A stretch of 64,000 nucleotides of DNA. Origin: Nitrospirota bacterium. GTDB taxonomy: Bacteria; Nitrospirota; Nitrospiria; 2-01-FULL-66-17. The position numbers were made by a program, and so were the translations under genes. The notes under the pieces were generated by a model, which was given only the letters and a program-made list of their open reading frames with translations, had not been told where the DNA came from and made no database searches. Of the stretch, positions 9,851-29,343 are shown in pieces; position 1 is the first letter of the stretch; each line of letters starts with the position of its first letter. The stretch spans positions 11,578 to 75,577 of the forward strand of contig JBMOMD010000043.1 of NCBI GenBank assembly GCA_049325295.1. Reading direction: 5' to 3'.

Positions 9851-11944
9851 GTGATGGCGGCGAAACGCGCGTCGGAGACAACGTCGGATCTTGTCTTTGA
9901 GATCGGCACCGAAGAGCTGCCCTGGACCGTGATCCGCGGCACGATCGCGCACTTGGACGGCGCGGCGCGCGCGGCATTCGAGCGGGCTCGACTGTCATCT
10001 CAAGCAGTCCACGTGTATGGCACGCCGCGGCGGTTGGTCCTGATCGCGGAAGGCGTGGCCACGCGGCAGGCCGAGGCGACCACGCAGGTGGTGGGCCCGC
10101 CCGCGAGCGCGGCGTTTGACGCGGACGGCAAGCCCACCAAGGCGGCCGAAGGATTCGCCAAATCGCAGGGCGTGGCGGTCTCGGATCTGACCGTGGTCAC
10201 GACCGAGAAGGGGCGGTACGTGGCGGTGGTGCGGGCGGAAGCGCGACACGCGGCGTCCGCCGTTCTGAAGGACGTGCTGCCGAAGCTGATCGCCGATCTC
10301 TCGTTTCCGCGCGCCATGAAGTGGGAAACCGGCGGCGCGCGGTTCGCCCGGCCGATCCGCTGGATCGTGGCGCTTTTCGGCGGCAAACCCATTGCGATCA
10401 AATACGGAGGGGTCGCGTCGGGTCTCATGACGCGCGGCCACGCGTTGAGCGCGCCCAAGCCGTTTCGCGCGCCCGCGACGTGGGCCGCGTTGTCGCAGAC
10501 GCTGGAGCGCCGGGGCGTGATCGTGGACCACGCGCGGCGGCGCGCGGTGATCGCCGCGCAACTGGCCGCGGTCGCGCGCGAGGCGGGCGGCCGCCTGGTC
10601 GAGGACGACGATTTGTTGGAGCAAGCCGCATTCCTCACCGAATCGCCCTGCGCGATCGCGGGCGCGTTCGACCCCAAGTATCTCGCGCTGCCGCGCGAAG
10701 TGATCGTAACCGTGATGAAGGAACACCAGGGGTATTTTTCGCTGGTGGACCGTAAGGGCGAACCCTTGCCCGGGTTCATCGCGGTGAGCAACGTCAAACC
10801 CGCGGGCCGCGCCGTGGCTTCGATCCGCGCGGGGTACGAACGCGTGATCCGCGCCCGCCTCGACGACGCCAAGTTTTATTTCGACCAGGACCAGAAGGAG
10901 CGTCTGGCCGACCGCGTGGAGCGGCTCAAGGGGGTGGTGTTCCAGGAAAAACTGGGCACGGTTCACGCCAAGGTGGAACGCGTGGTCGCGTTGGCGCGCG
11001 CGTTGGCGCCGCGCTTCGAGGTGGACGCGGGCCAAGCCGAACGCGCGGCATGGTTGTGCAAGGCGGATCTGACCACCGGCATGGTGCGCGAGTTTCCGGA
11101 GTTGCAGGGCATCATGGGGCGCGAGTACGCCAAACGGCAACACGAGCCCCAGGCCGTGGCCGACGCGATCGGCGAGCACTACCGGCCGCGCTTTGCCGGG
11201 GATCGGTTGCCCGCGAATCCCTTGGCTCAACTCGTGGCCGTGGCGGACAAGGTGGACACCATCGTGCGCTGTTTCGGCGCGGGCCTGATTCCCACCGGAT
11301 CGCAGGACCCGTACGCGCTGCGGCGCCAAGCGTTGGGCGTGGCGCAGATTCTGCGCGAGCGGCCGGTGGTCACGCTCTCGGCGTTGATCGCGCACGCGGC
11401 GCAGCCGGGCACGGACCACGGCACGATTCAGGAGTTCTTCTGCCAGCGGATCGAATCGCAGGCCAAGACCGAGGGGTTCCGCGCGGATTTGATCAACGCG
11501 GTGCTGGACGTGCCGTCCGCGGCCGACGCCCCGCACCTGGCGTTCCGCCGGCTGGCCGCGTTCACCGCGTTTTCGCGGCGTCCCGCGTTCGAATCGTTGA
11601 TGACGGTCTGCAAGCGAGTGATGAACATTTTGCCCGAGCAGTGCCCCGCCGCGATCGACCCCGCGCGGTTCACGCACGACGCGGAGCGCCGCCTGCACGC
11701 GGAGACGCAACGGGCCGCGGCCGCGATTCACGCGCACGAAGCCGAAGGTCGGGATGAGGCCGTGTTGGAGACGTTCGAGTCGCTCAAGCCCGCGATCGAC
11801 GGGTTCTTCACCGACGTGATGGTGATGGCCGAGGATCACGCGGTGCGCGACACGCGGCTGGCATTGCTCAAGGCGGTGAACGATTTGCTGGCGCGGTTCG
11901 CGGATTTCCGCGCGGTGGCGACGACGGAAGCGCAGGCACGCTGA
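9851..11944 (+). CDS. glyS: Glycine--tRNA ligase beta subunit
   Basis: GlyS N-terminus (VFEIGTEELP). Directly follows glyQ. ~697 aa. Confidence 0.9.
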   Translation: MMAAKRASETTSDLVFEIGTEELPWTVIRGTIAHLDGAARAAFERARLSSQAVHVYGTPRRLVLIAEGVATRQAEATTQVVGPPASAAFDADGKPTKAAEGFAKSQGVAVSDLTVVTTEKGRYVAVVRAEARHAASAVLKDVLPKLIADLSFPRAMKWETGGARFARPIRWIVALFGGKPIAIKYGGVASGLMTRGHALSAPKPFRAPATWAALSQTLERRGVIVDHARRRAVIAAQLAAVAREAGGRLVEDDDLLEQAAFLTESPCAIAGAFDPKYLALPREVIVTVMKEHQGYFSLVDRKGEPLPGFIAVSNVKPAGRAVASIRAGYERVIRARLDDAKFYFDQDQKERLADRVERLKGVVFQEKLGTVHAKVERVVALARALAPRFEVDAGQAERAAWLCKADLTTGMVREFPELQGIMGREYAKRQHEPQAVADAIGEHYRPRFAGDRLPANPLAQLVAVADKVDTIVRCFGAGLIPTGSQDPYALRRQALGVAQILRERPVVTLSALIAHAAQPGTDHGTIQEFFCQRIESQAKTEGFRADLINAVLDVPSAADAPHLAFRRLAAFTAFSRRPAFESLMTVCKRVMNILPEQCPAAIDPARFTHDAERRLHAETQRAAAAIHAHEAEGRDEAVLETFESLKPAIDGFFTDVMVMAEDHAVRDTRLALLKAVNDLLARFADFRAVATTEAQAR

Positions 11945-12026: not shown

Positions 12027-14696
12027 ATGGCTCGATCAGCGACGCACAAGTGGGTGTATTACTTCGGGGACGGACGCGCCGAGGGCAAGGCCGGCATGAA
12101 GGACCTGCTCGGGGGCAAAGGCGCCGGCCTCGCGGAGATGACCAACCTCAAGATCCCGGTGCCGCCCGGGTTCACCATCACCACCGAGGCGTGCGTCGAG
12201 TACTTCCGGCTCAAAAAATCGTATCCCAAAGGGATGTGGGACCAGACGCTCGCGGGGCTGAAGAAGGTCGAGCGGTCCATGAAGATGGGGTTCGGCGATC
12301 CCGAGCGGCCGTTGCTCGTCTCGGTCCGGTCCGGGGCCAAGGCGTCGATGCCCGGCATGATGGACACGGTGTTGAACCTCGGTCTGAACGAGCGCACGTT
12401 GCACGGCTTGATCAAAAAGACCGGCAACCCGCGCTTCGGCTACGACGCGTACCGTCGCTTCATTACCATGTTCGGCTCCATCGTGCTGGGCGTGAAGCGC
12501 GAGAAGTTCGAGCGTCTGTTGGAAGACGCCAAGGCCGAGCGCGGGGTGCATCATGACACCGAGCTGGACGAACACGCCTTGCGCCAGGTGGTCCGCGATT
12601 TCCAAAACTTGGTCAAGGCCGAGACCGGCCGGCCGTTTCCGGAAGATCCCATGGAGCAACTCACGCTCGCGATCAAAGCCGTGTTTGATTCGTGGTACGG
12701 CGCGCGCGCGGTCACCTATCGCAAGTTGAACAACATCCCGGAGTCGTGGGGCACGGCCGTGAACGTGGTGGCCATGGTGTTCGGGAACATGGGCGAGACC
12801 AGCGGCACGGGCGTGGCGTTCACGCGCGACCCCTCCACCGGCGAGCGGCGCTTCTTCGGGGAGTGTCTGCTCAACGCGCAGGGCGAAGACGTGGTCGCGG
12901 GCATCCGCACCCCGCTGCCGGTGGAGTCGCTCAAGGACACGATTCCCGCGGCGTATCGCGAGTTGCAGCGCGTGTACAAGTCGCTGGAGAAACACTACCA
13001 CGACATGCTCGACCTGGAGTTCACGATCCAGGAGGGCACGTTGTACATGCTCCAAACCCGCGTGGGCAAACGCACCGCCGCGGCCGCGATCCGCATCGCC
13101 ACCGAGATGGCCAAGGAAAAGCTCATTGACCGCGACACCGCGATCCTGCGCGTGGACCCGGAGCAACTCGACCAGCTCCTGCACCCCACCATCGACCCCT
13201 CTGCCAAGTTGCAGGTCGTGGCCAAGGGCTTACCCGCGTCACCTGGCGCGGCGGGCGGGAAAGTGGTGTTCACGGCCGAAGACGCGGAGCGGTCCGCGGC
13301 CAAGGGCGAAAAAGTGATCTTGGTGCGCGCGGAAACCTCGCCCGAGGACATCGGCGGCATGAACGCGGCCGAGGGCATTCTCACCGCGCGGGGCGGCATG
13401 ACTTCGCACGCCGCGGTGGTGGCGCGCGGCATGGGCAAGTGCTGCGTGGCCGGGTGCAGCGCGGTGAACATCGACGAACACAGCGACTCGTTCTCGGTCA
13501 ACGGCTACGTGGTGCGCCGCGGCGACTGGATCACGCTCAACGGCTCGACCGGCGAAGTCATCCTGGGCGAAGCCCCGCTGATCCGGCCCAAGCTGAGTAA
13601 GGACTTCGAGATCCTCATGGGCTGGGTGGACCAGACCCGGCGCCTGCGCGTGCGCGCCAACGCGGACACGCCCCACGACGCCCGGGTGGCGCGGGGATTC
13701 GGCGCCGAGGGCATCGGCCTGTGCCGGACCGAACACATGTTCTTCGAGGGCGACCGCATCCGCGCGGTGCGCGAAATGATCCTGGCCGACGATCTGGCCG
13801 GGCGGCAACGCGCGCTCGCCAAGTTGCTGCCCATGCAAAAGAGCGACTTTCTCGGCATCTTCAAGGAAATGGCCGGCCTGCCGGTCACCATCCGCCTGCT
13901 CGACCCGCCGCTGCACGAGTTCCTGCCCCAGACCGAGGCGGAACTCGCCTCGCTGGCCACGGACATGCACGTGTCGGTCGATGATCTGCGCGCCAAGAAC
14001 AAGAGCCTGCACGAATTCAACCCTATGCTGGGATGGCGGGGGTGCCGGTTGGGCATCACCTTCCCCGAGATTTACGAAATGCAGGTGCGCGCGATCTTCG
14101 AAGCCGCCTGCGAATTGGCCGGCCAGAAAGTTAAAGTGATTCCCGAAGTTATGATCCCCTTGGTCGCGCACGTGAAGGAATTGGCGCGCATGAAGGAATT
14201 GCTCATTCGCGTGGCCGAGGAAACCATGTCCCGCTACGGCAAGAAAGTGGCCTACACCATCGGCACCATGATCGAACTGCCGCGCGCCGCGCTCGTGGCG
14301 GACGAAATCGCCAAGGAAGCCGAGTTCTTCTCCTTCGGCACCAACGACCTCACCCAAACCACCTTCGGCCTCTCCCGCGACGACGCGGGCAAGTTCCTCC
14401 CGTTCTACGTCGAACAAGGCATCCTGCCCCGCGACCCCTTCGTGGCCATCGACCAGGACGGCGTGGGCGCCCTCATGCGCATGGGCGCAGAAAAAGGCCG
14501 CTCCGTGCGTCCCAAGTTGAAAGTCGGCATCTGCGGCGAACACGGCGGGGAGCCATCCTCCGTGGAGTTCTGCCACCGCATCGGCTTCGACTACGTGAGC
14601 TGCTCACCGTACCGCGTGCCGATCGCAAGACTTGCCGCAGCACAGGCGGCGCTGAAAGACAGCAAGAAGAAACGGGCGGTGTCGGATACGCGATAG
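12027..14696 (+). CDS. ppdK: Pyruvate, phosphate dikinase
   Basis: PEP-utilizing enzyme motifs ([22 protein letters not shown]). 889 aa. RBS GGAAGGGAG. Confidence 0.92.
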
Positions 14697-14697
14697 A

Positions 14698-14716
14698 CCC
14701 CGCGCGCTGCGCGGGG
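14698..14716 (+). terminator. GC hairpin CCCCGCGC-gct-GCGCGGGG directly after the ppdK stop (no U tract)
   Basis: Perfect 8-bp stem with a 3-nt loop, starting 2 nt after the TAG. Confidence 0.4.
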
Positions 14717-14742
14717 AAGACTTCTCATCCGGAGTGGGTGGA

Positions 14743-16080
14743 ATGCTGTCACGGCAGCAGAGTCCACAATCCTCGGGCACGACCTCCTCGCCAAAGCGCG
14801 GCGAGACTCCGAAGTCTCCTGCCTCCACGATCGAGATCAGCCAAGGGCAATCCGGGCGGCTCATCGTGCGCGTGCCGTACACCGCGGAGCGCGTGGCCAA
14901 GATCAAATCTATCACCGGCCGCCAGTGGCATCCGCAGGAAAAGTACTGGTCGGTGCCGCAGTCACCCCAAGCCGTCAACCGTCTGGTGGCTCTCTTTGGC
15001 GGAGAGCGTGTTTCGCTCCTCCCGCCGCTCGACGCGCCACCAATCCAGGATGCCCAGGGGCCGCCCGCGCCACCGGCCTCTCGTCAATCGACGGGAACGA
15101 CCGCCGGGCTTCTCGACGATGTGCGTCGTACGATCCGCAGCCGGCACTACAGCCGACGGACCGAAGAAGCCTATCTGGGCTGGATTCGGCGGTTCCTGCG
15201 GTTTCATGACCAACGTGATCCCGCACAGATGGCTGCCCCGGAGGTATCGCGCTTTCTCAGCACGCTGGCAATCGAGCGCGACGTGTCCGCCTCCACGCAA
15301 AACCAGGCCTTGGCCGCCATCCTCTTCCTGTACAAGGACGTGCTCGACCGCGACCCCGGATGGGTGGAAGGCGTGGTGCGCGCCAAGCGTCCGCAGCGCC
15401 TTCCGGTCGTGCTCTCCAGGCAGGAGGTCCAAGGCCTCTTGTCGGCGCTGCAAGGCGTGCCGTGGATCGCGGGGACCCTGCTCTACGGCGCGGGACTTCG
15501 TCTCATGGAGTGTCTGCGCCTGCGCGTCAAGGACGTGGACTTTGCCCGAGGAGAGATCGTGGTGCGCGAAGGGAAGGGCGGCAAGGACCGGGTCACCATG
15601 CTGCCGTCGGCCGCGGCGCCCAAACTCCGCGCACACCTGGACCGGGTCCGCAAACAGCACACGGCTGACCTGGCCGCAGGCTTCGGCCGGGTCTGGCTGC
15701 CAAACGCCCTAGCCCGCAAGTACCCCAACGCGGACCGCGAGTGGGGGTGGCAGTGGATCTTTCCGGCATCGACCATCTCAGTGGACCCACATAGCGGGGA
15801 GCGACGACGGCACCACCTGCACGAGTCCGTTCCGCAGCGTGCCATCCGCGAGGCCCGGCTCCGTGCTGGGATCACGAGACCCGTCGGTCCTCACACGTTG
15901 CGGCACTGCTTCGCCACGCATCTCCTGGAGTCCGGCCACGACATCCGCACCGTCCAGGAACTTCTCGGCCACAGCGACGTAAGAACCACCATGATCTACA
16001 CCCACGTCCTCAACCGCGGCGGCCTCGGCGTCCAAAGCCCGGCCGACCGGATTCTTGGAGGAGGCAGCGATGAGCGTTAG
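14743..16080 (+). CDS. intI: Integron integrase IntI (tyrosine recombinase with the IntI-specific additional domain) carrying a ~120 aa N-terminal extension
   Basis: [42 protein letters not shown]... matches the IntI-specific insertion. The C-terminal [39 protein letters not shown] is near-identical in pattern to IntI1, as recalled from memory. ATG at 14743 after RBS GGAGTGGGTGGA. Confidence 0.85.
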
Positions 16081-16250
16081 GACGCAGAATTTGTCGTATA
16101 ACATCACTTAACCATCGCTTAATGGAAATCGAGAAAACTGTTGGATTGTTTAATTAATCTGTGGAATAATTCACCATCGTCCTGATCTTGTTAGGACGCA
16201 GTTCTTGCCGTAGTTGCTGAATTCATTAGGACGTCTAATTTTAGTTGGGC
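16076..16250 (+). other. attI-like region. Direct repeats GTTAGGACGCAG (16076-16087, 16190-16201), ATTAGGACGTCT (16225-16236), and core GTTGGGC (16244-16250) at the cassette junction. AT-rich, with a candidate Pc promoter TTGGAT-N17-GAATAAT (16141-16170).
   Basis: GTTRRRY-type integrase-binding half-sites are repeated downstream of the intI stop. Crossover G|TT lies at 16244/16245, where the cassette-1 ORF region begins. Confidence 0.5.
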
Positions 16251-16256
16251 GCCAAT

Positions 16257-17258
16257 ATGACTGAGCGCATCGCTATTGCCGGTGTCTCCGAGCGAGACGT
16301 AGATCTTCTATTGTTGGAGGAGTTTCAGTCTTCCAGCGACTTTCAAGGCTGGTTTGTACGAGAAGCGTTCGGCCCCGACGTTGACTTTGGGCAGTGCACT
16401 GGAGCAAGACGATCAATCACGAACTCTACGGGCGAATCGGATCTCGAGATCTTCTTTGCGAACTCCAAAGGTGAGAAGACCCGGCTCTTGATAGAGAACA
16501 AGGTAAACGCCGGTTTTCAACCACTTCAGGCTGAGCGGTACAAGGAGCGAGGGCTGGGCTACGTTTCTACAGCCCAATGCAACTCCTTTCGAACGGTACT
16601 CATAGCTCCAGCTCGCTACTTCGGTGAATCGGCTTCCCGCAAGGGTTTCGATGGGCGCGTTTCGTATGAGCAGATTCTTCGTTGGTTCGGAGAAGCGGTG
16701 CAACTCGGCGAGAGGCGTCAATACAAAGTCGCATTACTAAGGTCGGCCATTGACAAGGGCACGCTCGGGTACCAACCAGAAGAAGACAAGCCGACAACAG
16801 CGTTTTGGAAGGCGTACTGGCGCTTCGCGCTCGATCGGGCTCCCGAGCTTGAAATGCCGGAGCCCAGTGCAAAACCATCCCGCTCCAGCTTTGTCCATTT
16901 CAGGCCCCGTACTCTGCCGCGCTCGGTAGACATCGTCCACAAGTTCGCATTCGGTCACGTTGATCTGCATTTGCGCGGCATGGGCAAACGTCTTAACGAG
17001 GTGCGCGTTGCCGTGCGACCTTATCTGGCTCCTGCCATGACTGTCGCGGCGGCAGCGAAATCAGCGGCGATACGTATCGAAGTCCCGAAACTACGCGTCA
17101 CGGCGCCATTTGAGGCGCAAACACCAGAGGCAGAACTTGCCCTCGATGCAGCAAAGCGGTTGCACGTATGGTTTATCGACAGCAACGATTTCGCTACGTG
17201 GTTGGTTGGCGCCCAACAATCGGTTGCAGGCGACGCGCCGCGAGCGGCACGTGCCTGA
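16257..17258 (+). CDS. Cassette-encoded PD-(D/E)xK nuclease-superfamily protein of unknown function
   Basis: ~52% GC against a ~67% background. Motif GESDLEIFF...LLIENK (D...ExK) with upstream E/D residues. No RBS, which is common for cassettes. Bounded by GTTGGGC cores. Confidence 0.6.
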   Translation: MTERIAIAGVSERDVDLLLLEEFQSSSDFQGWFVREAFGPDVDFGQCTGARRSITNSTGESDLEIFFANSKGEKTRLLIENKVNAGFQPLQAERYKERGLGYVSTAQCNSFRTVLIAPARYFGESASRKGFDGRVSYEQILRWFGEAVQLGERRQYKVALLRSAIDKGTLGYQPEEDKPTTAFWKAYWRFALDRAPELEMPEPSAKPSRSSFVHFRPRTLPRSVDIVHKFAFGHVDLHLRGMGKRLNEVRVAVRPYLAPAMTVAAAAKSAAIRIEVPKLRVTAPFEAQTPEAELALDAAKRLHVWFIDSNDFATWLVGAQQSVAGDAPRAARA

Positions 17259-17273
17259 ACCGAAGCGTTGGGC
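17211..17273 (+). other. attC recombination site of cassette 1 (63 bp)
   Basis: GCCCAACAATCGGTTGCAGGCGACGCGCCGCGAGCGGCACGTGCCTGAACCGAAGCGTTGGGC. R''=GCCCAAC and R'=GTTGGGC, with imperfectly complementary L arms and bulged bases. Strongly resembles aadA-type attC, recalled from memory. Confidence 0.65.
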
Positions 17274-17290
17274 GCCATAACAGAAGAACC

Positions 17291-17644
17291 ATGAACGTTC
17301 GCATTGCGACAACCGATTCCGAGATTGCCATCTGCTATCCAGTAATGCGGGAGCTTCGTCCGCACATCGCGGAAGAGCGATTTCTCTCCCGGATCCGGAG
17401 TCAAGAAGGTGCAGGCTATCGGCTCGCCTATGTGCAAGAACCAAATGGCGTAGTTGCGGTTGCTGGATTCCGAGTCGGTGAGAATCTGGCTTGGGGGCGT
17501 TTTCTGTACGTCGATGATCTTGTAACCCTTCCCGCACACCGATCAAAGGGCTATGGTGCCAAGTTGCTTTCGTGGCTCAAAGAACAAGCCGCAAAGGAAG
17601 GTTGTGAGTGCTTGGTCCGGGGTCGGACCCGCGCAATGTGTTGA
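17291..17644 (+). pseudogene. GNAT family N-acetyltransferase, 3'-truncated by insertion of the RAYT/IS element
   Basis: GNAT motif A (HRSKGYGAKLL) is present. The protein ends 9 aa after GCECL, with the beta5-beta7 region missing. The sequence diverges exactly where the element's inverted repeat begins (17614). ~53% GC. Confidence 0.55.
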
Positions 17645-18551
17645 AAAGTCATCCGCCTTTGGGCACAATGAGGCCGCTGGAGGTCTTGGATCGCACGTTG
17701 TAGAGCCAAAACTACGCTGCAGGGAGGAAGCGTCATGCCGCGCGCCCATCGCTATTTTCTTCCCCATCACATCTGGCACATCACGCACCGGTGTCATCAA
17801 CGGGCGTTTCTCCTGAAGTTCGCGCGTGACCGCCGGCGCTGGCGGCAGTGGCTGTTTGAGGCCACGAAGCGGTTTCGGCTGTGTGTGCTCAATTACGTCG
17901 TCACGTCCAACCATATTCATCTCTTGGTCCGGGATCAGGGGCGAGGCGAGATCGCGCGCGCGATGCAGCTCATCGCGGGACGCACGGCCCAGGAATACAA
18001 TCAACGCAAAGGGCGACAGGGAGCGTTCTGGGAGGATCGGTATCATGCCACGGCGGTCGACACGGAGAGCTACCTGGCCCGCTGTCTGGTCTACATTGAT
18101 CTGAACATGGTGCGGGCGGGCGCCGTGGCGCACCCGCGTGACTGGGACGCGGGCGGCTATCACGAGCTGCATGCGCCACCCACGCGGTACGCGATCATCG
18201 ATCAGCCGGCGCTCACCGAGTTGCTCGGCCTGAAGAGTCTCCAGCAACTACAGGAGACTCACGCGCTGTGGATCGAGGAGGCGATCCGGGCGGGAGGTGG
18301 ACCACGCGATCCGATGTGGACCGAGAGCGTGGCGGTCGGCCGCGCCGAGTTCGTGCGAGATGTCCAGGTCGAGCTGGGGAGCAAGGCGCGATATCGGGAG
18401 GTCGTGGCCGAAGGACAGGCGCACGTGCTGCGCGAACCGCCGACCCTCTACGGGGCATTTTGACGGGCAAAAGGCCGCGCGAAGGGCTCAACCGTCCGCC
18501 GTGGCGGACCAAAACCTCGAGACATCAATCGATTGCGCTGGTCCGACCCCG
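17614..18551 (+). mobile_element. RAYT / IS200-IS605-like element bounded by 12-bp inverted repeats CGGGGTCGGACC (17618-17629) and GGTCCGACCCCG (18540-18551)
   Basis: Left end GGTCCGGGGTCGGACC is itself a hairpin. A second GTCCGCC-gt-GGCGGAC hairpin sits at 18494-18509. Inserted inside cassette 2. Confidence 0.5.
17735..18463 (+). CDS. Y1 HUH transposase, REP-associated tyrosine transposase (RAYT / IS200-like TnpA), 242 aa
   Basis: HUH motif SNHIHLLV and the catalytic-Y helix VYIDLNMVRAGAV (YIxxNPVRAGLV-like). N-terminus HIWHITHRCHQRAFLL matches the Transposase_17 family. Confidence 0.75.
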   Translation: MPRAHRYFLPHHIWHITHRCHQRAFLLKFARDRRRWRQWLFEATKRFRLCVLNYVVTSNHIHLLVRDQGRGEIARAMQLIAGRTAQEYNQRKGRQGAFWEDRYHATAVDTESYLARCLVYIDLNMVRAGAVAHPRDWDAGGYHELHAPPTRYAIIDQPALTELLGLKSLQQLQETHALWIEEAIRAGGGPRDPMWTESVAVGRAEFVRDVQVELGSKARYREVVAEGQAHVLREPPTLYGAF

Positions 18552-18844
18552 AGCGACACCCCGAGCGACTCCCCCGCTGGCGCAGACCGCCTGGCTGCCC
18601 GTGCTCCGGGCCCTGGGGGCGCGCGCGTGGTTCGGCGAGCAGCTCTACGTCGCGGGCGCGGGCCAGGTGTTCGACGCGCACGGCCGGCTCGTCGATGAGA
18701 GAATCAGAACACTCCTGACCGAGTTCATGGCGGGCTTTACCGCATTCGTGAACGTCAAATGAGTCCTGAGCGACTCGATCGACGGACGTGCCGCGGTGGG
18801 GAAACGGCGCGCGAGGGACCATCACGTTAACCGGGAGGTGAGCC

Positions 18845-19273
18845 ATGCTGTTGGGATTCTTGGATCGCTACCGCGACTACGGACCGCTCTGTCTTCGCAT
18901 CGCACTCGGCCTCGTGATGATGGGGCACGGCAGCCAGAAATTGTTCGGCGCGTTCGGCGGGGGCGGTTTGTCGGGTACCGCGGGGTTCTTTGATCAAATC
19001 GGACTCGCGCCGGGCCTGTTCTGGGCCACGGTGGCGGCGATCGTGGAAACCTTCGGCGGGCTCTTGGTCTTCATCGGATTGCTGACGCGCGTGGCCGGCG
19101 TGTTGATCGCGATCACCATGTTCGTGGCCATGGTGTGGGTCCATCTGCCGAACGGGTTCTTTCTCCAAAATAAGGGGATCGAGTTCACCCTGGTCCTGTT
19201 CAGCATGGCCACGGCGCTGGCGCTGACGGGCCCGGGCGCGGTGTCGGCCGACGCCATGGCCACGAAACGGTGA
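18845..19273 (+). CDS. DoxX family membrane protein
   Basis: DoxX-like TM pattern (GLVMMGHGSQKL...FFDQIGLAPGLFW). RBS GGAGGTGAG. Confidence 0.75.
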   Translation: MLLGFLDRYRDYGPLCLRIALGLVMMGHGSQKLFGAFGGGGLSGTAGFFDQIGLAPGLFWATVAAIVETFGGLLVFIGLLTRVAGVLIAITMFVAMVWVHLPNGFFLQNKGIEFTLVLFSMATALALTGPGAVSADAMATKR

Positions 19274-19297
19274 TTGCTTTCACGAGGGAGGTGATCC

Positions 19298-19666
19298 ATG
19301 AAGGTGATCGAGATCGCGTTTACCGGGTATCCCGTGACCGACCTCAAGCGCGCGCGGAAATTTTATGAGGGCGCGCTGGGCTTGACGGTCGGCAAGATGT
19401 TCGGCGATGAGAACCAGGCGTGGGTGGAATACGACATCGGGCCCGGCACGCTCGCCATCGGCAATATCGCGCCGGAATGGAAACCCTCGCCCAACGGCGG
19501 GTCGATCGGACTGGAAGTGGATGACTTCGAGGGCGCAATCAAACGGCTCAAGCAGCTCGGCGTCACGTTCGCGGTCGAACCCATGGAATCGCCGGTCTGC
19601 CGCATGGCCGTGATCTCGGACCCCGACGGCAACTCGGTGACCATTCACAAGCGCAAGGCCAGATAA
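19298..19666 (+). CDS. VOC (glyoxalase/bleomycin-resistance) family protein
   Basis: Small VOC-fold sequence (YPVTDLKRARKFYEGALGL...). Confidence 0.72.
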   Translation: MKVIEIAFTGYPVTDLKRARKFYEGALGLTVGKMFGDENQAWVEYDIGPGTLAIGNIAPEWKPSPNGGSIGLEVDDFEGAIKRLKQLGVTFAVEPMESPVCRMAVISDPDGNSVTIHKRKAR

Positions 19667-19739
19667 CGCGAGCGAGGGGATGACGGTTCGCGACATGGGG
19701 CAAGGTTCCCTTCCCTCCCGCGTGTTTGGCCTTTGATCA

Positions 19740-20126
19740 ATGCGCGTCGCCTGGGAGGATGCGATCAGACGCGGTGACGTCCGGACCGTTTGCGAGCTCA
19801 TTGCGCGCGGCGTGGACGTCAATGCCCGCGATCGGTACGGACAGACCGGTCTGATGCTGGCCGCGCACGCCGGGCATCGCCGGATCGTGGAAACGCTCAT
19901 CGCGCATCGGGCCGATCCGAACGTCACCGCCAAGTTCGGGTTGAGCGCGTTGATGTTGGCGGTTGTGGCCGGGCATCCGGACATTGCGCGCCTCTTGGCG
20001 AAGGTCGGGGCCGATCTCGCGTTGCGGGGAACCGGGGCTCCTGGCTTCGCCAACAAGACCGCCTATGATTTGGCGGTCGAGCGCGGCATGTCGGAGGTAT
20101 CCGCTGAATTGAAGCCCGAACCGTAA
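19740..20126 (+). CDS. Ankyrin repeat protein
   Basis: ANK repeats (GQTGLMLAAHAGHRRIVETLIAHRADPN...). Confidence 0.7.
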   Translation: MRVAWEDAIRRGDVRTVCELIARGVDVNARDRYGQTGLMLAAHAGHRRIVETLIAHRADPNVTAKFGLSALMLAVVAGHPDIARLLAKVGADLALRGTGAPGFANKTAYDLAVERGMSEVSAELKPEP

Positions 20127-20141
20127 ACCAAGGACGGCGCG

Positions 20142-20744
20142 ATGACGTCAGACTCTGAGCGACGCGCGGAATACGAGCGGTTCAAGCGGATCGACGCGGC
20201 GTTTCGCGCGGGTGATCTGGCCGCGTTGCGGGCCGCGGTCGATGATCCGGCGGCCGTGCCGAACGGACCGATGCCGTTGACCATCGGCTCCTGCCTCGAA
20301 TACGCGATCTACCACAGCCCGTTGCCGTTCATCCGCGCGCTGCTGGAGATCGGCGCGGATTCCAACCCCGCGGACCACGCCGGGTTTCCGCCCTTGATCG
20401 CGGCCTTGTCGTGCGGCCGCGCACAGCCCGGCGCGCCCGGTCGATCGGACGTCATGGAGGTCATGAAACTTTTGCTCGCGTTCAGGTCCGACCCCAACCA
20501 ACGCGGGATCAACGACTATACGCCGCTGCACATGGCGGTCAGCGAGCGGAATCTGCCGGCAATCGAACTCTTATTGGTCTCAGGCGCGGACCCGCGGCTG
20601 CGCACCCGGATCGACGAGCGCGAAACCCCGCGCGAGATGGCGGAGAAAGCCGGATCTCGCGACATCGCTCGGCTGCTTGCGAGTCACGAGGCGGCGCGCC
20701 GGGGTGAACCCGGTCCCGCCGACACGTTCAACGAATCACGTTGA
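20142..20744 (+). CDS. Ankyrin repeat protein
   Basis: ANK repeats (YTPLHMAVSERNLPAIELLLVSGADP). Confidence 0.7.
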   Translation: MTSDSERRAEYERFKRIDAAFRAGDLAALRAAVDDPAAVPNGPMPLTIGSCLEYAIYHSPLPFIRALLEIGADSNPADHAGFPPLIAALSCGRAQPGAPGRSDVMEVMKLLLAFRSDPNQRGINDYTPLHMAVSERNLPAIELLLVSGADPRLRTRIDERETPREMAEKAGSRDIARLLASHEAARRGEPGPADTFNESR

Positions 20745-20792
20745 CCCATCCGGTCGTGTCCGGTTTCGCGGACGCGTTGTGCGGCATCGCAC

Positions 20793-20822
20793 TTTACCTG
20801 TTTGTCGGGCCCGTGGTATAAG
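20793..20822 (+). promoter_or_regulatory. Promoter-like motif TTTACC-N17-GTATAAG(CGCGGCATGC). One of two near-identical copies; the other is at 26677.
   Basis: Shares CGTG(G/T)TATAAGCGCG(G/C)CATGC and a TTTAC(C/T) -35 at identical spacing with 26677-26706. Confidence 0.45.
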
Positions 20823-20857
20823 CGCGGCATGCGCGTCCGTTCCCCCGGAGCAGCGGC

Positions 20858-21307
20858 ATGAGCCTGCGTTGGTTGCGGCGGATCGGCGTTCACCTGGTGA
20901 CGGTGCTCGTTGGTCTCTCGACCGCGGGCGCCGCGGTCGACGCCAAGCTCGGACTGCCGACCCCGATCACGACCGGGCTGGCCGATTACGCGTTCCAGGG
21001 AGCGGACGCGGCGGTCAAGGCGTGGGCCAAAGGCAGCGCGCGGGAGGGGAGTCCTGAAACCTCGATTCAAGTCAACTACTTGAAACACGTTGAAGCGATG
21101 TACGGGAAGTTCCAGAGTTATCATCTCGTCCAAGTGCATGCGCTCTCGCCATTGACCCTCATCGTGTACCTGACCATCAACTACGAGAAGGGACCGTTGT
21201 TTGCCCGGTTCCTGTCCTACCGCATCAGAAACGATTGGGTGCTGCCGGAGTTCAGCTTCGACACCAAACCCGAGGCGATTTTCCCGCCCGAGTTGTTGGC
21301 GGACTGA
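20858..21307 (+). CDS. Hypothetical secreted protein (signal peptide)
   Basis: N-terminal hydrophobic signal sequence. RBS GGAGCAG. No family recognised. Confidence 0.45.
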   Translation: MSLRWLRRIGVHLVTVLVGLSTAGAAVDAKLGLPTPITTGLADYAFQGADAAVKAWAKGSAREGSPETSIQVNYLKHVEAMYGKFQSYHLVQVHALSPLTLIVYLTINYEKGPLFARFLSYRIRNDWVLPEFSFDTKPEAIFPPELLAD

Positions 21308-21346
21308 CGCCGCGCTTCGGCGAGGGAACGGGACACGCGTTCGACG

Positions 21347-21541
21347 ATGACCCTGTCGGCAGACCAGTGGAAAGAGTGGATTGTTGCGGCCGTCGTGATC
21401 ACGGCCGGGGGCGTCGTTCTCGCCGTGGTCGGGTCGTTACGCGGCTACGACGGAATCGCACGAGTCGGAACCGTGACGGCGTTCGGAGGGTTCATTCTGT
21501 TTCTGGTCGCGCGTATCCGGTATTCCCGCTGTCGCCGATGA
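21347..21541 (+). CDS. Small hypothetical 2-TM membrane protein (64 aa)
   Basis: Two hydrophobic helices. Weak evidence only. Confidence 0.3.
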   Translation: MTLSADQWKEWIVAAVVITAGGVVLAVVGSLRGYDGIARVGTVTAFGGFILFLVARIRYSRCRR

Positions 21542-21585
21542 CGCGGTTCCCCACATCCGGTCGGCGCCGGGCGTTCGGAGGATGA

Positions 21586-22002
21586 ATGGCCGGGTGGGAG
21601 CTGTTTCAGCACGGCGCGGACATCGGCGTGCGGGGCATCGGTCGATCCAAGGCCGAAGCCTTTGAACAGGCGGCAATGGCGCTCACCGGCGTGGTGACTG
21701 ATCCGGCGACCGTGGCGCCGAGGGACGTGGTGGAGATCACGCGCCGGGAGGCCGACGAGGAGTTGCTGCTGGTGGACTGGCTCAACGCCCTGGTGTACGA
21801 AATGGCGACGCGCCGGATGCTGTTCAGTCGGTTCGAGATCACCGTGGAGCGCGACACGTTGCGCGCGAAAGCCTGGGGCGAGGCCGTGGACGTGGCCAAA
21901 CACCAGCCGGCCGTCGAGGTCAAAGGCGCCACGTTCACCGAGCTGCGCGTTCGCCGGGATCAGGACGGCGCCTGGACCGCCCAGTGCGTGGTGGACGTGT
22001 AG
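21586..22002 (+). CDS. Archease (RtcB activator)
   Basis: Archease-length protein, N-terminus [17 protein letters not shown], directly upstream of rtcB. RBS GGAGGA. Confidence 0.85.
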
Positions 22003-22009
22003 CCGGTCG

Positions 22010-23452
22010 TTGGAGGCACTGATGGAACTCGCGCAACTGATCCGACAATCCGAGACCGAATGGCGGATCCCGCCGAGCGGGACGATGCGGGTCCCGGTGA
22101 TCATCTACGCGACCGAATCCCTGATGCGGGAGATGGATCAGAAGGTCTACGAACAGGCGGTCAACGTGGCCGCGCTGCCGGGGATTGAAAAGGCGTGTTA
22201 CGTGATGCCCGACGCGCATTGGGGCTACGGCTTTCCGATCGGCGGCGTCGCGGCCTTTGATCCGGATCGCGGGGGCGTCATCTCGGCGGGCGGGGTGGGT
22301 TTTGATATTTCCTGCGGAGTCCGCGCATTGGTGACCGGCATGACGCGGGAGACGATCGCGCCGGAGCGGGAGCGGTTGGCCGAGGCCTTGTACCGCACGG
22401 TGCCGGCCGGCGTGGGCAGCCGGGGCAAGATCCACCTGAGCTCCCACGAGATGGACGAGATGTTGCTGGGCGGCGCCGGTTGGGCGGTGGGGAAAGGGTA
22501 CGGCCGTCCGGAAGATTTGGAGCGAATTGAAGAGCGCGGACGCATGGACGGGGCGCGGCCCGATCAGGTGTCCGAGTTCGCCAAAAAGCGCCAACAAGAC
22601 GAGATGGGCACCCTGGGCTCGGGCAATCACTACTTGGAAGTGCAGGAAGTCCGGGCCGTGTACGACGCGGAATTGGCCGCGGTGTTCGGAATTCGCCAGG
22701 GCGACGTGGTGGTGAGCATCCACTGCGGCTCGCGCGGCCTGGGCCATCAGATCGGGACCGAGTTTTTGAAGAAGATGCTGCCGGCGGCCGCGCAAGCCGG
22801 CATCGAACTCCCGGATCGCGAGCTGGCCTGCGCGCCCATCCGGTCGGACGTGGGGCAAGCATACCTTGGGGCGATGCGCGCGGCCACCAACTGCGCGCTG
22901 GCCAACCGGCAGATCATCACCCACCTGGTGCGCCAGGCGTTCGGCCGGGTGTTCCCTTCCGCGGAGCTTCGATTGCTCTACGACGTGTCCCATAACACCT
23001 GCAAGGTCGAAACACACGTCGTCGACAACCGGCCTAAACGCCTGTTCGTGCACCGCAAGGGCGCGACCCGCGCCTTCGGTCCCGGGCATCCGGACATTCC
23101 GCCAGCGTTGCGCGCGGTGGGACAACCGGTGTTGATCGGCGGCACCATGGGCACGGCGTCGTACGTTCTGGTGGGAACCGGCCAGGGAGAGGAGCGATCC
23201 TTTGGATCGGCCTGCCACGGCGCGGGGCGGAGCATGAGCCGGCACCAAGCCACGAAACAATGGCGGGGACGCGACTTGATCGACGCCTTGGCCGCCAAGG
23301 GCGTGTTGATCCGCAGCCCCTCCTACCGCGGCGTGGCCGAGGAAGCGCCGGGCGCGTATAAAGACGTGGACGCGGTGGTGGACGCCGCGGATGAGGCCGG
23401 ATTGGCTCGAAAGGTGGCCCGGCTCGAGCCGATGATCTGCATCAAAGGATAA
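22010..23452 (+). CDS. rtcB: RNA-splicing ligase RtcB
   Basis: RtcB signature (MPDAHWGYGFPIGGVAAFD...HNHY...). 480 aa. Confidence 0.92.
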   Translation: MEALMELAQLIRQSETEWRIPPSGTMRVPVIIYATESLMREMDQKVYEQAVNVAALPGIEKACYVMPDAHWGYGFPIGGVAAFDPDRGGVISAGGVGFDISCGVRALVTGMTRETIAPERERLAEALYRTVPAGVGSRGKIHLSSHEMDEMLLGGAGWAVGKGYGRPEDLERIEERGRMDGARPDQVSEFAKKRQQDEMGTLGSGNHYLEVQEVRAVYDAELAAVFGIRQGDVVVSIHCGSRGLGHQIGTEFLKKMLPAAAQAGIELPDRELACAPIRSDVGQAYLGAMRAATNCALANRQIITHLVRQAFGRVFPSAELRLLYDVSHNTCKVETHVVDNRPKRLFVHRKGATRAFGPGHPDIPPALRAVGQPVLIGGTMGTASYVLVGTGQGEERSFGSACHGAGRSMSRHQATKQWRGRDLIDALAAKGVLIRSPSYRGVAEEAPGAYKDVDAVVDAADEAGLARKVARLEPMICIKG

Positions 23453-29266: not shown

Positions 29267-29343
29267 GCCCCCGTAGCTCAGTTGGATAGAGCAGCGGTTT
29301 CCTAAACCGCGTGTCGGCCGTTCAATTCGGCCCGGGGGCACCA
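29267..29343 (+). tRNA. tRNA-Arg (anticodon CCT), CCA encoded
   Basis: Cloverleaf: acceptor GCCCCCG/CGGGGGC, D-arm GCTC...GAGC, anticodon stem GCGGT/ACCGC with loop TTCCTAA, T-arm GGCCG-TTCAATT-CGGCC. 77 nt. Confidence 0.88.

Follow-up and report, generated by a model that had tools for sequence, protein, structure and literature searches.

A probable sedentary chromosomal integron in a Nitrospirota bacterium, with an integrase that joins a HARP-like N-terminal domain to a canonical core

Does the low-GC DNA that follows a recombinase gene beside ppdK in a Nitrospirota bacterium belong to an integron and, if so, of what kind and in what state? We examined this question in a window of 64,000 nucleotides (the whole stretch of the 229,929-bp contig JBMOMD010000043.1 that was analysed; mean GC 64.8%), for which a preliminary description had proposed a chromosomal integron with intI in the same orientation as its cassettes. 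IntI, attI, attC and a cassette were all found where they had been placed, and the locus as a whole is very probably a sedentary chromosomal integron with the 'inverted integrase' layout and a three-part IntI. The integron is an ordinary one, but the architecture of its integrase is probably undescribed. The features studied are intI, attI, cassette 1, its attC, a GNAT cassette remnant and a Y1-transposase element, all on the + strand:

14743-16080, +: intI, integron integrase of 445 aa, ATG at 14743 and TAG at 16078-16080 (TIGR02249, VchIntIA alignment)
14830-15021, +: HARP-like N-terminal domain of IntI, residues 30-93 (predicted fold, homologue searches)
15022-15108, +: Pro-rich disordered linker of IntI, to about residue 122, joining the HARP-like domain to the core
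15697-15825, +: integron-specific additional domain of IntI, residues ~319-361, ending in RRRHHLHE (column for column with VchIntIA)
16076-16250, +: attI, 37% GC (repeats, conservation in relatives, GC content)
16076-16087, +: attI distal repeat GTTAGGACGCAG, over the intI stop
16141-16170, +: candidate cassette promoter in attI, TTGGAT, 18 nt, TGGAATAAT (extended -10-like motif)
16190-16201, +: attI proximal repeat
16225-16239, +: attI palindrome ATTAGGACGTCTAAT, with L-box GTCTAAT at 16233-16239
16244-16250, +: attI R-box GTTGGGC, crossover G^TT at 16244/16245
16245-17267, +: cassette 1, 1023 bp (L092 match, GC)
16257-17258, +: cassette 1 gene, 333 aa, uncharacterised PD-(D/E)XK_4-like protein (Pfam PF14281)
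17211-17273, + (top strand): attC of cassette 1, 63 nt, R'' GCCCAAC and R' GTTGGGC (pattern, folding, covariance model)
17268-17617, +: cassette 2 remnant, GNAT acetyltransferase gene from 17291, lacking its 3' end and attC (Pfam Acetyltransf_1)
17618-18551, +: IS200/RAYT-like Y1-transposase element, which closes the array (inverted repeats, Pfam Y1_Tnp)
17618-17644 and 18525-18551: inverted repeats of this element, 27 nt, 85% complementary
17735-18463, +: Y1 transposase gene

The integrase core and its attachment site

The identity of the integrase is carried by its core. A profile search with TIGR02249 ('integron integrase') gave 474.5 bits against a cutoff of 265, and alignment to VchIntIA (PDB 2a3v) ran end-to-end over 314 residues (306 bits). 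The additional domain, whose presence had been proposed from the sequence, stands on this alignment to a known structure: it matches 2a3v without gaps, and alignment to XerA breaks at residues 302-354. The catalytic R, K, HxxR and H...Y motifs, read by eye from the alignment, are identical in the two integrases, and the core has a dN/dS of 0.10. The exact IntI protein was also found on a Logan contig.

The intI gene lies directly 3' of ppdK and is transcribed toward its own attI, which starts at the intI stop codon, with the cassettes next on the same strand. The gap between ppdK and intI is only 46 bp and contains a hairpin, and a consensus promoter scan upstream of intI found no sigma-70 promoter. 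Locus comparison showed that the ppdK-intI adjacency is kept in L087, L090 and L091; because of this conserved linkage, we regard the integron as sedentary and chromosomal. Housekeeping genes flank it. The site had been given as between ppdK and archease-rtcB, which holds on the ppdK side, but archease-rtcB is separated from the Y1-transposase element by about 3 kb of genes whose composition is host-like.

The segment 3' of intI had been described as AT-rich and attI-like, with repeats (one over the stop) and a GTTGGGC core, and this reading was borne out by composition, repeats and comparison alike. Its GC content is 37.4%, and the direct repeat GTTAGGACGCAG has exactly two copies in 64 kb, one at 16076 that holds the stop codon and one at 16190, with a degenerate third copy at 16226. 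At 16244, on the cassette boundary, GTTGGGCGCCAA matches the reverse complement of 17206-17217 at all 12 nt. In L087, L088, L090/L091, L089 and L086, attI is conserved as far as ...TTTTAGTT and diverges immediately beyond, and among relatives with 70-83% identical IntI we found six different sequences beyond ...TTTTAG/TT. L087 and L088 have identical IntI and different first cassettes beyond the crossover, a difference that speaks for recent exchange within the clade. The crossover is defined by six natural variants, and this attI is experimentally tractable.

By analogy with studied integrons, IntI would have two substrates: attI in double-stranded form, bound at its L/R core and its GTTAGG-type repeats, and the folded bottom (-) strand of the attC hairpin. 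Strand exchange would occur at G^TT (16244/16245), so that newly captured cassettes would go in beside attI, with their genes directed away from intI. Their promoter may also lie in attI, where alignment of relatives shows a conserved TG-extended -10-like block at 16162-16170, although the consensus promoter scan found no sigma-70 consensus site in attI, the candidate block included. It is also possible that the cassettes are expressed by read-through from intI.

The cassette array and its truncated end

The attC of cassette 1 was proposed as canonical (GCCCAAC...GTTGGGC), and a covariance model built solely from attCs of other loci agreed, scoring 17211-17273 at 57.1 bits (E = 6e-13) on the + strand and 17.2 bits on the - strand. 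It is the sole RYYYAAC...GTTRRRY pair in the 64 kb with 7/7 complementarity that also folds. The recombinogenic bottom strand, here the - strand, has a folding energy of -35.3 kcal/mol (z = -8.2). Sites of this class combine RYYYAAC...GTTRRRY boxes with an imperfect hairpin in which the arm facing the 5'-AAC-3' of the bottom strand bears unpaired bases (PMC5027507), and 17211-17273 has the boxes, the hairpin and the unpaired bases. Folding of the bottom strand, which had been suggested as a check on the extrahelical bases, placed them on the canonical arm. However, they are not the usual G and T six bp apart: in the minimum-energy fold they are C and C, 5 bp apart, whereas the covariance-model register has C and T separated by 6 positions, along with an A.C mismatch. 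Likewise, 2-3 nt are unpaired in the central spacer, where 5-6 nt are usual. G/T bulges and a 5-6-nt spacer are typical of attCs, not defining, and C as the first bulge is common to the attCs of co-directional relatives.

With default filters, the covariance model reported nothing further in the window below E = 0.3, and no second attC was found with the strict pattern, with the extended R-box GGCGCCCAAC, or with the model run without filters over 16000-21700. Two extra candidates from a relaxed heuristic, at 11135 (inside glyS) and 23607, were rejected because the covariance model gave them no support. No Rfam family matched the integron, the single Rfam match in the window being a tRNA.

Cassette 1 had been described as 1023 bp long with 52% GC against about 67%. 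Its length and its lower GC content were confirmed, but the values are 56.4% for the cassette and 64.8% for the window mean. Codon usage, examined cassette by cassette as had been suggested, revealed foreign composition: GC3 is 0.59 in the cassette 1 gene and 0.51 in the GNAT remnant, against 0.78-0.89 in host genes. An integron that is otherwise unrelated, L092, matches the window at 16243-17274 only, with 89.7% nucleotide identity, the same boundaries and unrelated flanks, and the cassette is therefore a discrete mobile unit. Relatives with the same ppdK-intI-attI platform carry other DNA right after the GTT crossover; together with the recurrence of the cassette as a discrete unit in another integron, this disposes of the concern that the low-GC segment might be core genome. 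The 333-aa protein matched Pfam PF14281 at 24.1 bits (cutoff 22.3) and has 268 homologues across many phyla, the nearest with 91% identity. Among PADLOC defence models it had no significant match.

These results also bear on whether the locus is an integron at all. Low-GC DNA adjoining a transposase element could be a genomic islet inserted by a Y1 transposase, next to an Xer-like recombinase and a hairpin that serves as a terminator. However, the TIGR02249 score and the additional domain exclude an Xer recombinase, the hairpin carries R''/R' boxes and asymmetric bulges and obtains an attC-typical covariance-model score, and the cassette recurs elsewhere with attC-defined ends. We consider this reading refuted by the VchIntIA alignment, the attC covariance model and the L092 cassette, and its residual probability is negligible.

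Beyond the intact cassette comes a damaged one. The GNAT remnant covers positions 20-96 of the 116 in the Acetyltransf_1 profile. It had been described as a second low-GC cassette disrupted by a transposase element; its low GC3 and the cut at the left inverted repeat agree with this, but the gene is truncated and does not resume. Past the right inverted repeat, no GNAT-like + ORF was seen by eye, and the one frame scanned there had no Pfam match. The element itself consists of a Y1 transposase gene flanked by one 27-nt inverted-repeat pair, with no further copy elsewhere in the window. The transposase scored 48.3 bits with Pfam Y1_Tnp, above the cutoff, and 69.3 bits with NCBIfam REP_Tyr_transpos (NF047646), below the cutoff of 80; the Y1 transposases of the window and of L092 are not closely related. 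The genes further on, between 18845 and 21307 (DoxX, glyoxalase, two ankyrin genes and a hypothetical gene), were considered as old cassettes and rejected, as they lack attCs, have a host-like GC3 of 0.79-0.85, and include an intergenic gap of just 25 bp. The present array would therefore comprise one intact cassette (the PD-(D/E)XK-like gene with its 63-nt attC) and a GNAT cassette cut by the Y1-transposase element, which probably deleted the remainder.

It is conceivable that this deletion left a decaying relic, the transposase event having taken the array and cassette exchange having ceased in the lineage. The single attC and the truncated second cassette with no continuation past the element would fit such a history, for which L092, a related integron that lost intI and retains only a decayed 3' end, offers a precedent. 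Against this, the intI frame is open over its full length, retains every catalytic motif and has a dN/dS of 0.10 in its core; the attI beside it is undamaged and conserved, and L087 and L088 differ in their first cassettes despite identical IntI. We therefore judge a relic unlikely and favour the sedentary integron described above. The array has a single attC, which weighs against judging present activity from the array alone.

An additional N-terminal domain in the integrase

The preliminary description made no mention of an extra N-terminal domain in IntI. Over about 65 residues, this conserved domain is predicted to form five strands and two helices (AF2 pLDDT ~90), and its best structural matches are T4 UvsW, XPB and SMARCAL1 HARP. 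IntI is tripartite: the HARP-like domain at its N-terminus is followed by a flexible linker and then by the canonical IntI core, which includes the additional domain.

That the first 125 codons belong to IntI might be questioned. The C-terminal 319 aa are identical to an NCBI protein, 'MAG: integron integrase [Nitrospirota bacterium]' (P0152), which begins at residue 127, and classical IntIs (320-340 aa) have no such N-terminal region; translation could start at an internal GTG, the upstream frame being untranslated or a separate small gene. However, the frame is open from 14743 with GGAG upstream (14732-14735), and there is neither a stop codon nor a plausible start between domain and core. 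When only the N-terminal 125 aa served as query, a word-indexed search for homologues returned no match; the homologues came from an exhaustive HMMER search, and the region is kept in dozens of homologues of 404-451 aa that were called by other pipelines. The IntI of Nitrospira tepida (P0253), a relative in culture, also has the domain. Its dN/dS is 0.2-0.4, against 0.5-0.8 in the adjacent linker, and its fold is predicted with high pLDDT. A short IntI is thus very improbable, and with the 445-aa protein preferred, the NCBI start call strips off the HARP-like domain, which exposes a systematic annotation error.

Whether the domain is truly of the HARP type is less certain. HARP was its sole Pfam match and its sole PDB sequence match, although Pfam HARP (PF07443) scored IntI at only 19 bits (E = 0.001), below the gathering cutoff of 25, and matched 9 of 31 homologues at E <= 0.01. 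The likeness may be convergent or due to chance, and the domain some unrelated small alpha/beta module that binds DNA or protein, but we think this rather doubtful: three independent methods agree on HARP, UvsW-N, XPB-DRD and MotA, and the SNF2 helicase P0087, a direct phmmer match of the domain, itself passes the Pfam HARP cutoff with 29.6 bits. Moreover, the predicted topology fits published HARP, a five-stranded sheet with two helices that serves as a structure-specific DNA-binding module of fork-remodelling helicases (PMC4666394).

We prefer the HARP-like reading, under which the module may act as an accessory structure-specific DNA binder that aids engagement of hairpin or branched substrates. 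In SMARCAL1 and UvsW, both fork-remodelling helicases, the HARP module serves to detect junctions of single- and double-stranded DNA, and there is still debate on how the integrases of integrons locate folded, single-stranded attC in vivo and stabilise it. As a tentative proposal, one that may well prove wrong, a widespread IntI clade (Nitrospirota, Elusimicrobiota, Armatimonadota and others) could have acquired a HARP-type DNA binder that reads structure and not sequence and that would aid capture, possibly at replication forks, of folded attC or of the branched intermediate in attI x attC recombination. On this view, related recombinases in which the domain is repeated in tandem up to four times (P0019) hint at a wider family of fusions between HARP and recombinases that has yet to be described. 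In the literature that we covered, no paper connected tyrosine recombinases with HARP or reported an IntI extended at its N-terminus. A naturally occurring fusion between IntI and this class of branched- or junction-DNA domain offers a directly testable handle on attC recognition.

Layout and comparison with known systems

In this locus, as in 20 relatives, intI lies on the strand of the attC top strands and 5' of them. The co-directional arrangement had been called the rarer 'inverted' layout. The layout itself was confirmed, but among 50 classifiable loci of integrase relatives, 20 were co-directional, 30 divergent and none mixed, so that 'rarer' applies to Proteobacteria only; outside them, the 'inverted' layout is common among relatives of this IntI. 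All eight classifiable loci with a HARP-bearing integrase were co-directional, and the domain may therefore be functionally tied to the layout. The layout is not novel, having been published for Treponema (PMC3607928, PMC4889954), whose IntI is about 410 aa by gene coordinates (PMC3607928), and Cury et al. reported the inverted integron-integrase group to be paraphyletic (PMC4889954). The locus adds one more sedentary chromosomal integron from a poorly sampled phylum.

VchIntIA of the V. cholerae superintegron resembles this IntI in core, additional domain and catalytic residues but lacks the HARP-like domain, and its gene is oriented divergently to a very long series of VCR attCs of ~130 nt, unlike the co-directional array here with its one attC. 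For the class 1 integron, the comparison was with attI1 and attC(aadA7). The present attI resembles attI1 in its GTTA-type direct repeats 5' of an L/R simple site whose crossover point is G^TT; it differs in that the distal repeat lies over the stop codon, 114 bp from the proximal one, and that the cassettes share a strand with intI. The attC shares with attC(aadA7) a length of about 60 nt and the helix-bulge-helix-bulge plan, but its first bottom-strand bulge is C, not G, and its central spacer is shorter; an aadA7-like attC is present in relative L082. The Treponema denticola-type integrons of the 'inverted integron-integrase group' (PMC3607928, PMC4889954) are likewise chromosomal and vertically inherited, with arrays that transposases can interrupt. 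The present integron differs from them in its phylum, Nitrospirota, and in an array reduced to one cassette. Finally, the HARP domain of SMARCAL1 and the N-terminus of T4 UvsW (PMC4666394) would share the predicted five strands and two helices and were the top structural matches, although the scores here fall under family thresholds; in those proteins the domain is joined to an SF2 ATPase, whereas here it is joined to a tyrosine recombinase.

Genomic setting and the integrase core

The observation that the preliminary description placed between ppdK and archease-rtcB is confirmed, and its reading as an integron is supported: an integrase gene, a conserved attI, an attC and a mobile cassette were all found there, flanked on both sides by housekeeping genes and with the + strand in use throughout.

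Features of the integron region
9851-11944, +, glyS, upstream housekeeping gene
12027-14696, +, ppdK, upstream housekeeping gene
14743-16080, +, intI (ATG at 14743, 445 codons, TAG at 16078-16080)
16245-17267, +, cassette 1, 1023 bp, with a 333-aa PD-(D/E)XK_4-like gene
from 17268, +, cassette 2 remnant, with a GNAT gene from 17291 whose 3' end is missing
17618-17644 and 18525-18551, 27-nt inverted repeats flanking the Y1 transposase gene
17735-18463, IS200/RAYT-like Y1 transposase gene, inside the 17618-18551 element
18845-21307, same-strand run of small genes (DoxX, glyoxalase-family, two ankyrin-repeat, one hypothetical lacking a Pfam match)
21586-22002, +, archease, downstream housekeeping gene
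22010-23452, +, rtcB, downstream housekeeping gene

The intI start codon lies 46 bases past the ppdK stop and is preceded by GGAG. Residues 123-437 of the product score 474.5 bits against NCBIfam TIGR02249, "integron integrase" (cutoff 265), and align without gaps to 2a3v, the structure of the integrase from Vibrio cholerae. That alignment takes in the catalytic R, K, HxxR and H...Y residues and the integron-specific additional domain (ending ...RRRHHLHE) that had been proposed earlier, and it is exactly at this domain that an alignment with XerA is interrupted. Together, these matches make the assignment of intI as an integron integrase secure.

A GC-rich hairpin (CCCCGCGCGCTGCGCGGGG) directly follows the ppdK stop. 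At 14699-14717 it is a perfect GC hairpin, CCCCGCGC-GCT-GCGCGGGG, with the ppdK stop on one side and the intI ribosome-binding site on the other, and could be a terminator or attenuator governing read-through into intI. The ppdK-intI gap is too short for a conventional intI promoter.

The closest public integrases (83%, 74% and about 70% identity) are on short metagenomic contigs. In three loci with related integrases (L087, L090 and L091) intI likewise lies directly 3' of ppdK, an adjacency that identifies the platform as a vertically inherited, sedentary chromosomal integron. GC skew is positive over 1-48 kb of the window, a weak hint that + is the leading strand, with the attC bottom strand on the template for leading-strand synthesis, the orientation reported for sedentary integrons. 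In 4-kb bins the skew flips near ~48000 and is negative over 48-64 kb, a switch that may mark a landmark of replication or reflect no more than an altered gene orientation. One tRNA gene, at 29267-29340, is the sole Rfam match in the window.

Recombination sites and cassettes

From the intI stop to cassette 1 there are 163 bp with a GC content of 37%. This attI carries direct repeats, one of them over the stop codon, as previously described. The window contains exactly two copies of GTTAGGACGCAG, one at 16076 (including the stop codon) and one at 16190, and a degenerate third copy lies within the palindrome ATTAGGACGTCTAAT at 16225-16239, immediately before TTTA-GTTGGGC. When the regions downstream of intI were aligned, they were conserved up to ...GGACGTC(T/G)AATT(T/A)TAGTT and diverged completely at once thereafter, with six distinct continuations (the window, L087, L088, L090/L091, L089 and L086), two of which, L087 and L088, follow integrases of identical protein sequence. 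This pattern pins the crossover at 16244^16245 and shows exchange of first cassettes within the clade. In the 74%-identity relatives, the repeat at the stop codon (L091:2145-2185) makes up a perfect inverted repeat, GTTAGGCCGCAG-AAT-CTGCGGCCTAAC, with a T-rich stretch after it; its counterpart in the window (16076-16102) is imperfect. Candidate roles for this repeat are termination of intI transcription, an additional pair of IntI binding sites, or the two combined.

A scan of the 64 kb for RYYYAAC...GTTRRRY with a folding-energy filter returned a single attC, at 17211-17273; the folding energy of its bottom (-) strand is -35.3 kcal/mol (z = -8.2 relative to shuffled sequences). A covariance model built from 18 attCs of other loci only, as a substitute for IntegronFinder, gave this site 57.1 bits on the + strand (E = 6e-13) and 17.2 bits on the - strand, and found no further attC in the window better than E = 0.3, also with filters off over 16000-21700. 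The unpaired bases sit on the canonical arm, an arrangement to which selection of the bottom strand has been ascribed (PMC5027507). The bases themselves, which the preliminary description had proposed to check by folding, are atypical: C and C in the minimum-energy fold, or, in the covariance-model register, a C and a T that are six positions apart and accompanied by an A.C mismatch, versus the usual G and T. In the centre, the unpaired spacer has 2-3 nt, versus the usual 5-6 nt. In co-directional relatives, too, the first bulge of the attCs is a C.

A 12-nt stretch at 16244-16255 (GTTGGGCGCCAA) is the perfect reverse complement of 17206-17217, as expected for both ends of one cassette, and sets the limits of cassette 1 at 16245-17267, in agreement with the 1023-bp cassette ending in an attC claimed earlier. 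Cassette 1 (GC 56.4%, GC3 0.59) and the GNAT remnant (GC 53.7%, GC3 0.51) both fall below the host genes (GC about 65%, GC3 0.78-0.89), a compositional difference that supports a foreign origin of both; low GC in cassette 1 had been correctly noted, although the figures then given (52% vs ~67%) did not hold. Similarity between the window and the contig L092 is confined to 16243-17274 (89.7% identity); on L092, cassette 1 is preceded by another attI-like site and the decayed 3' end of an intI, and a different cassette comes next. Since the match is so confined, cassette 1 is a discrete mobile unit with ends exactly as predicted. That the low-GC segment might instead be core genome is refuted by this limited match and by the divergence of relatives past the crossover. 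As L092:1-620 and 1535-2118 show, the PD-(D/E)XK cassette there (90% identity) has upstream of it only the decayed intI 3' end (…HVLNRGGRG…), and the cassette-like unit downstream encodes a 113-aa Y1_Tnp protein and has a partial attC.

The second, GNAT cassette is disrupted by a transposase element, as had been reported: its gene enters the left inverted-repeat arm at 17618-17644 and is truncated there, and no continuation was found beyond the element. To the right, an open frame runs to 18762 without a start codon or family match. The truncated gene on one side and the startless frame on the other suggest that the Y1 element caused a deletion; it terminated the array, and the distal part was probably deleted by the same element. 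The small genes at 18845-21307, between this element and archease, have a cassette-like look but were rejected as cassettes, being host-like in composition and lacking attCs.

An N-terminal, probably HARP-like domain in IntI

Compared with classical IntIs, this integrase has about 120 additional residues at its N-terminus, where it carries an extra domain that the preliminary description missed. The NCBI entry (P0152, 319 aa, "integron integrase [Nitrospirota bacterium]") starts at an internal GTG and so drops 14743-15126, that is, the conserved domain and its linker; homologues from other pipelines are 404-451 aa long. Dozens of these keep the motif GRLIVxxPYxPERVAKIKTxxGRRWHxxEKYWTVP...LLALFAG, and dN/dS against four relatives is 0.2-0.4 over residues 28-95, 0.5-0.8 in the Pro-rich linker and 0.10 in the core. 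The open frame from 14743, the motif and these ratios indicate that the N-terminal region is coding.

The only Pfam match of the domain is HARP (PF07443, the DNA-binding module of SMARCAL1-type helicases), below threshold (E = 0.001; 19 bits, cutoff 25). HARP was also matched by 9 of 31 homologues, and the domain profile had a single match among PDB sequences, SMARCAL1 HARP 4o66 (E = 0.7). Pfam HARP is above threshold (29.6 bits) in P0087, an SNF2 helicase in which the domain occurs twice. These matches are individually weak but convergent, and we consider a HARP-like structure-specific DNA-binding fold the probable identity of the domain. In an exhaustive HMMER search, 908 representative clusters contained the domain. 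Its architectures include an N-terminal position in Xer-like recombinases and in integron integrases, and up to four tandem copies ahead of the recombinase in P0019. Three to four tandem HARP-like modules precede non-integron tyrosine recombinases in P0019, P0009 and P0014. HARP-recombinase fusions thus look to be a wider family that is still undescribed; our literature search found no paper linking HARP to tyrosine recombinases and no description of an N-terminal extension of IntI.

Proposed mechanism and relation to inverted integrons

To the parts, boundaries, first-cassette exchange among relatives and cassette 1 mobility shown here can be added a mechanism proposed by analogy with that established for integrons. 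IntI would bind two substrates: attI in double-stranded form, at its GTTAGG-type repeats and L/R core, and the attC of an incoming cassette in the form of the folded - strand. It would cut at G^TT and insert the cassette at 16244/16245 with its gene directed away from intI. Expression could be supplied by read-through of intI or, alternatively, by a candidate promoter, the conserved TG-extended -10-like block at 16162-16170, which a consensus promoter scan did not call. Hypothetically, the HARP-like domain on its flexible tether may assist in engaging DNA that is branched or forms a hairpin.

The cassette genes and the top strand of attC share the strand of intI and lie 3' of it. This "inverted integrase" layout has been published for Treponema (PMC3607928), and the inverted-integrase group is treated as paraphyletic by Cury et al. 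(PMC4889954). When the attC covariance model was run on 80 genome loci with related integrases and on metagenomic loci, 20 were co-directional, 30 classical divergent and none mixed, the co-directional loci coming for the most part from Acidobacteriota, Eisenbacteria, Nitrospirota and Elusimicrobiota and the divergent ones from Proteobacteria. The co-directional layout, which the preliminary description emphasised, was overrated there: it is already known, and it is common among loci with related integrases. One co-directional array, in Eisenbacteria (L015, at least 14 attCs), has three identical attCs at 316-bp spacing (L015:14988-15719), which are tandem duplicates of one very short cassette. 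The Nitrospira relative L082, whose IntI bears the HARP-like domain, has a Transposase_mut gene immediately after intI on the opposite strand (L082:11347-12591), with an aadA7-like attC 2 kb downstream; this is a further transposase-interrupted array.

The domain-bearing IntI loci comprise the window and nine others (L002, L004, L005, L010, L082, L084, L086, L089 and L091), and each of the eight classifiable ones is co-directional; 13 co-directional loci lack the domain. Compared with known inverted chromosomal integrons, the window element is a further member, and its HARP-like domain probably makes it, with its clade, a new variant.
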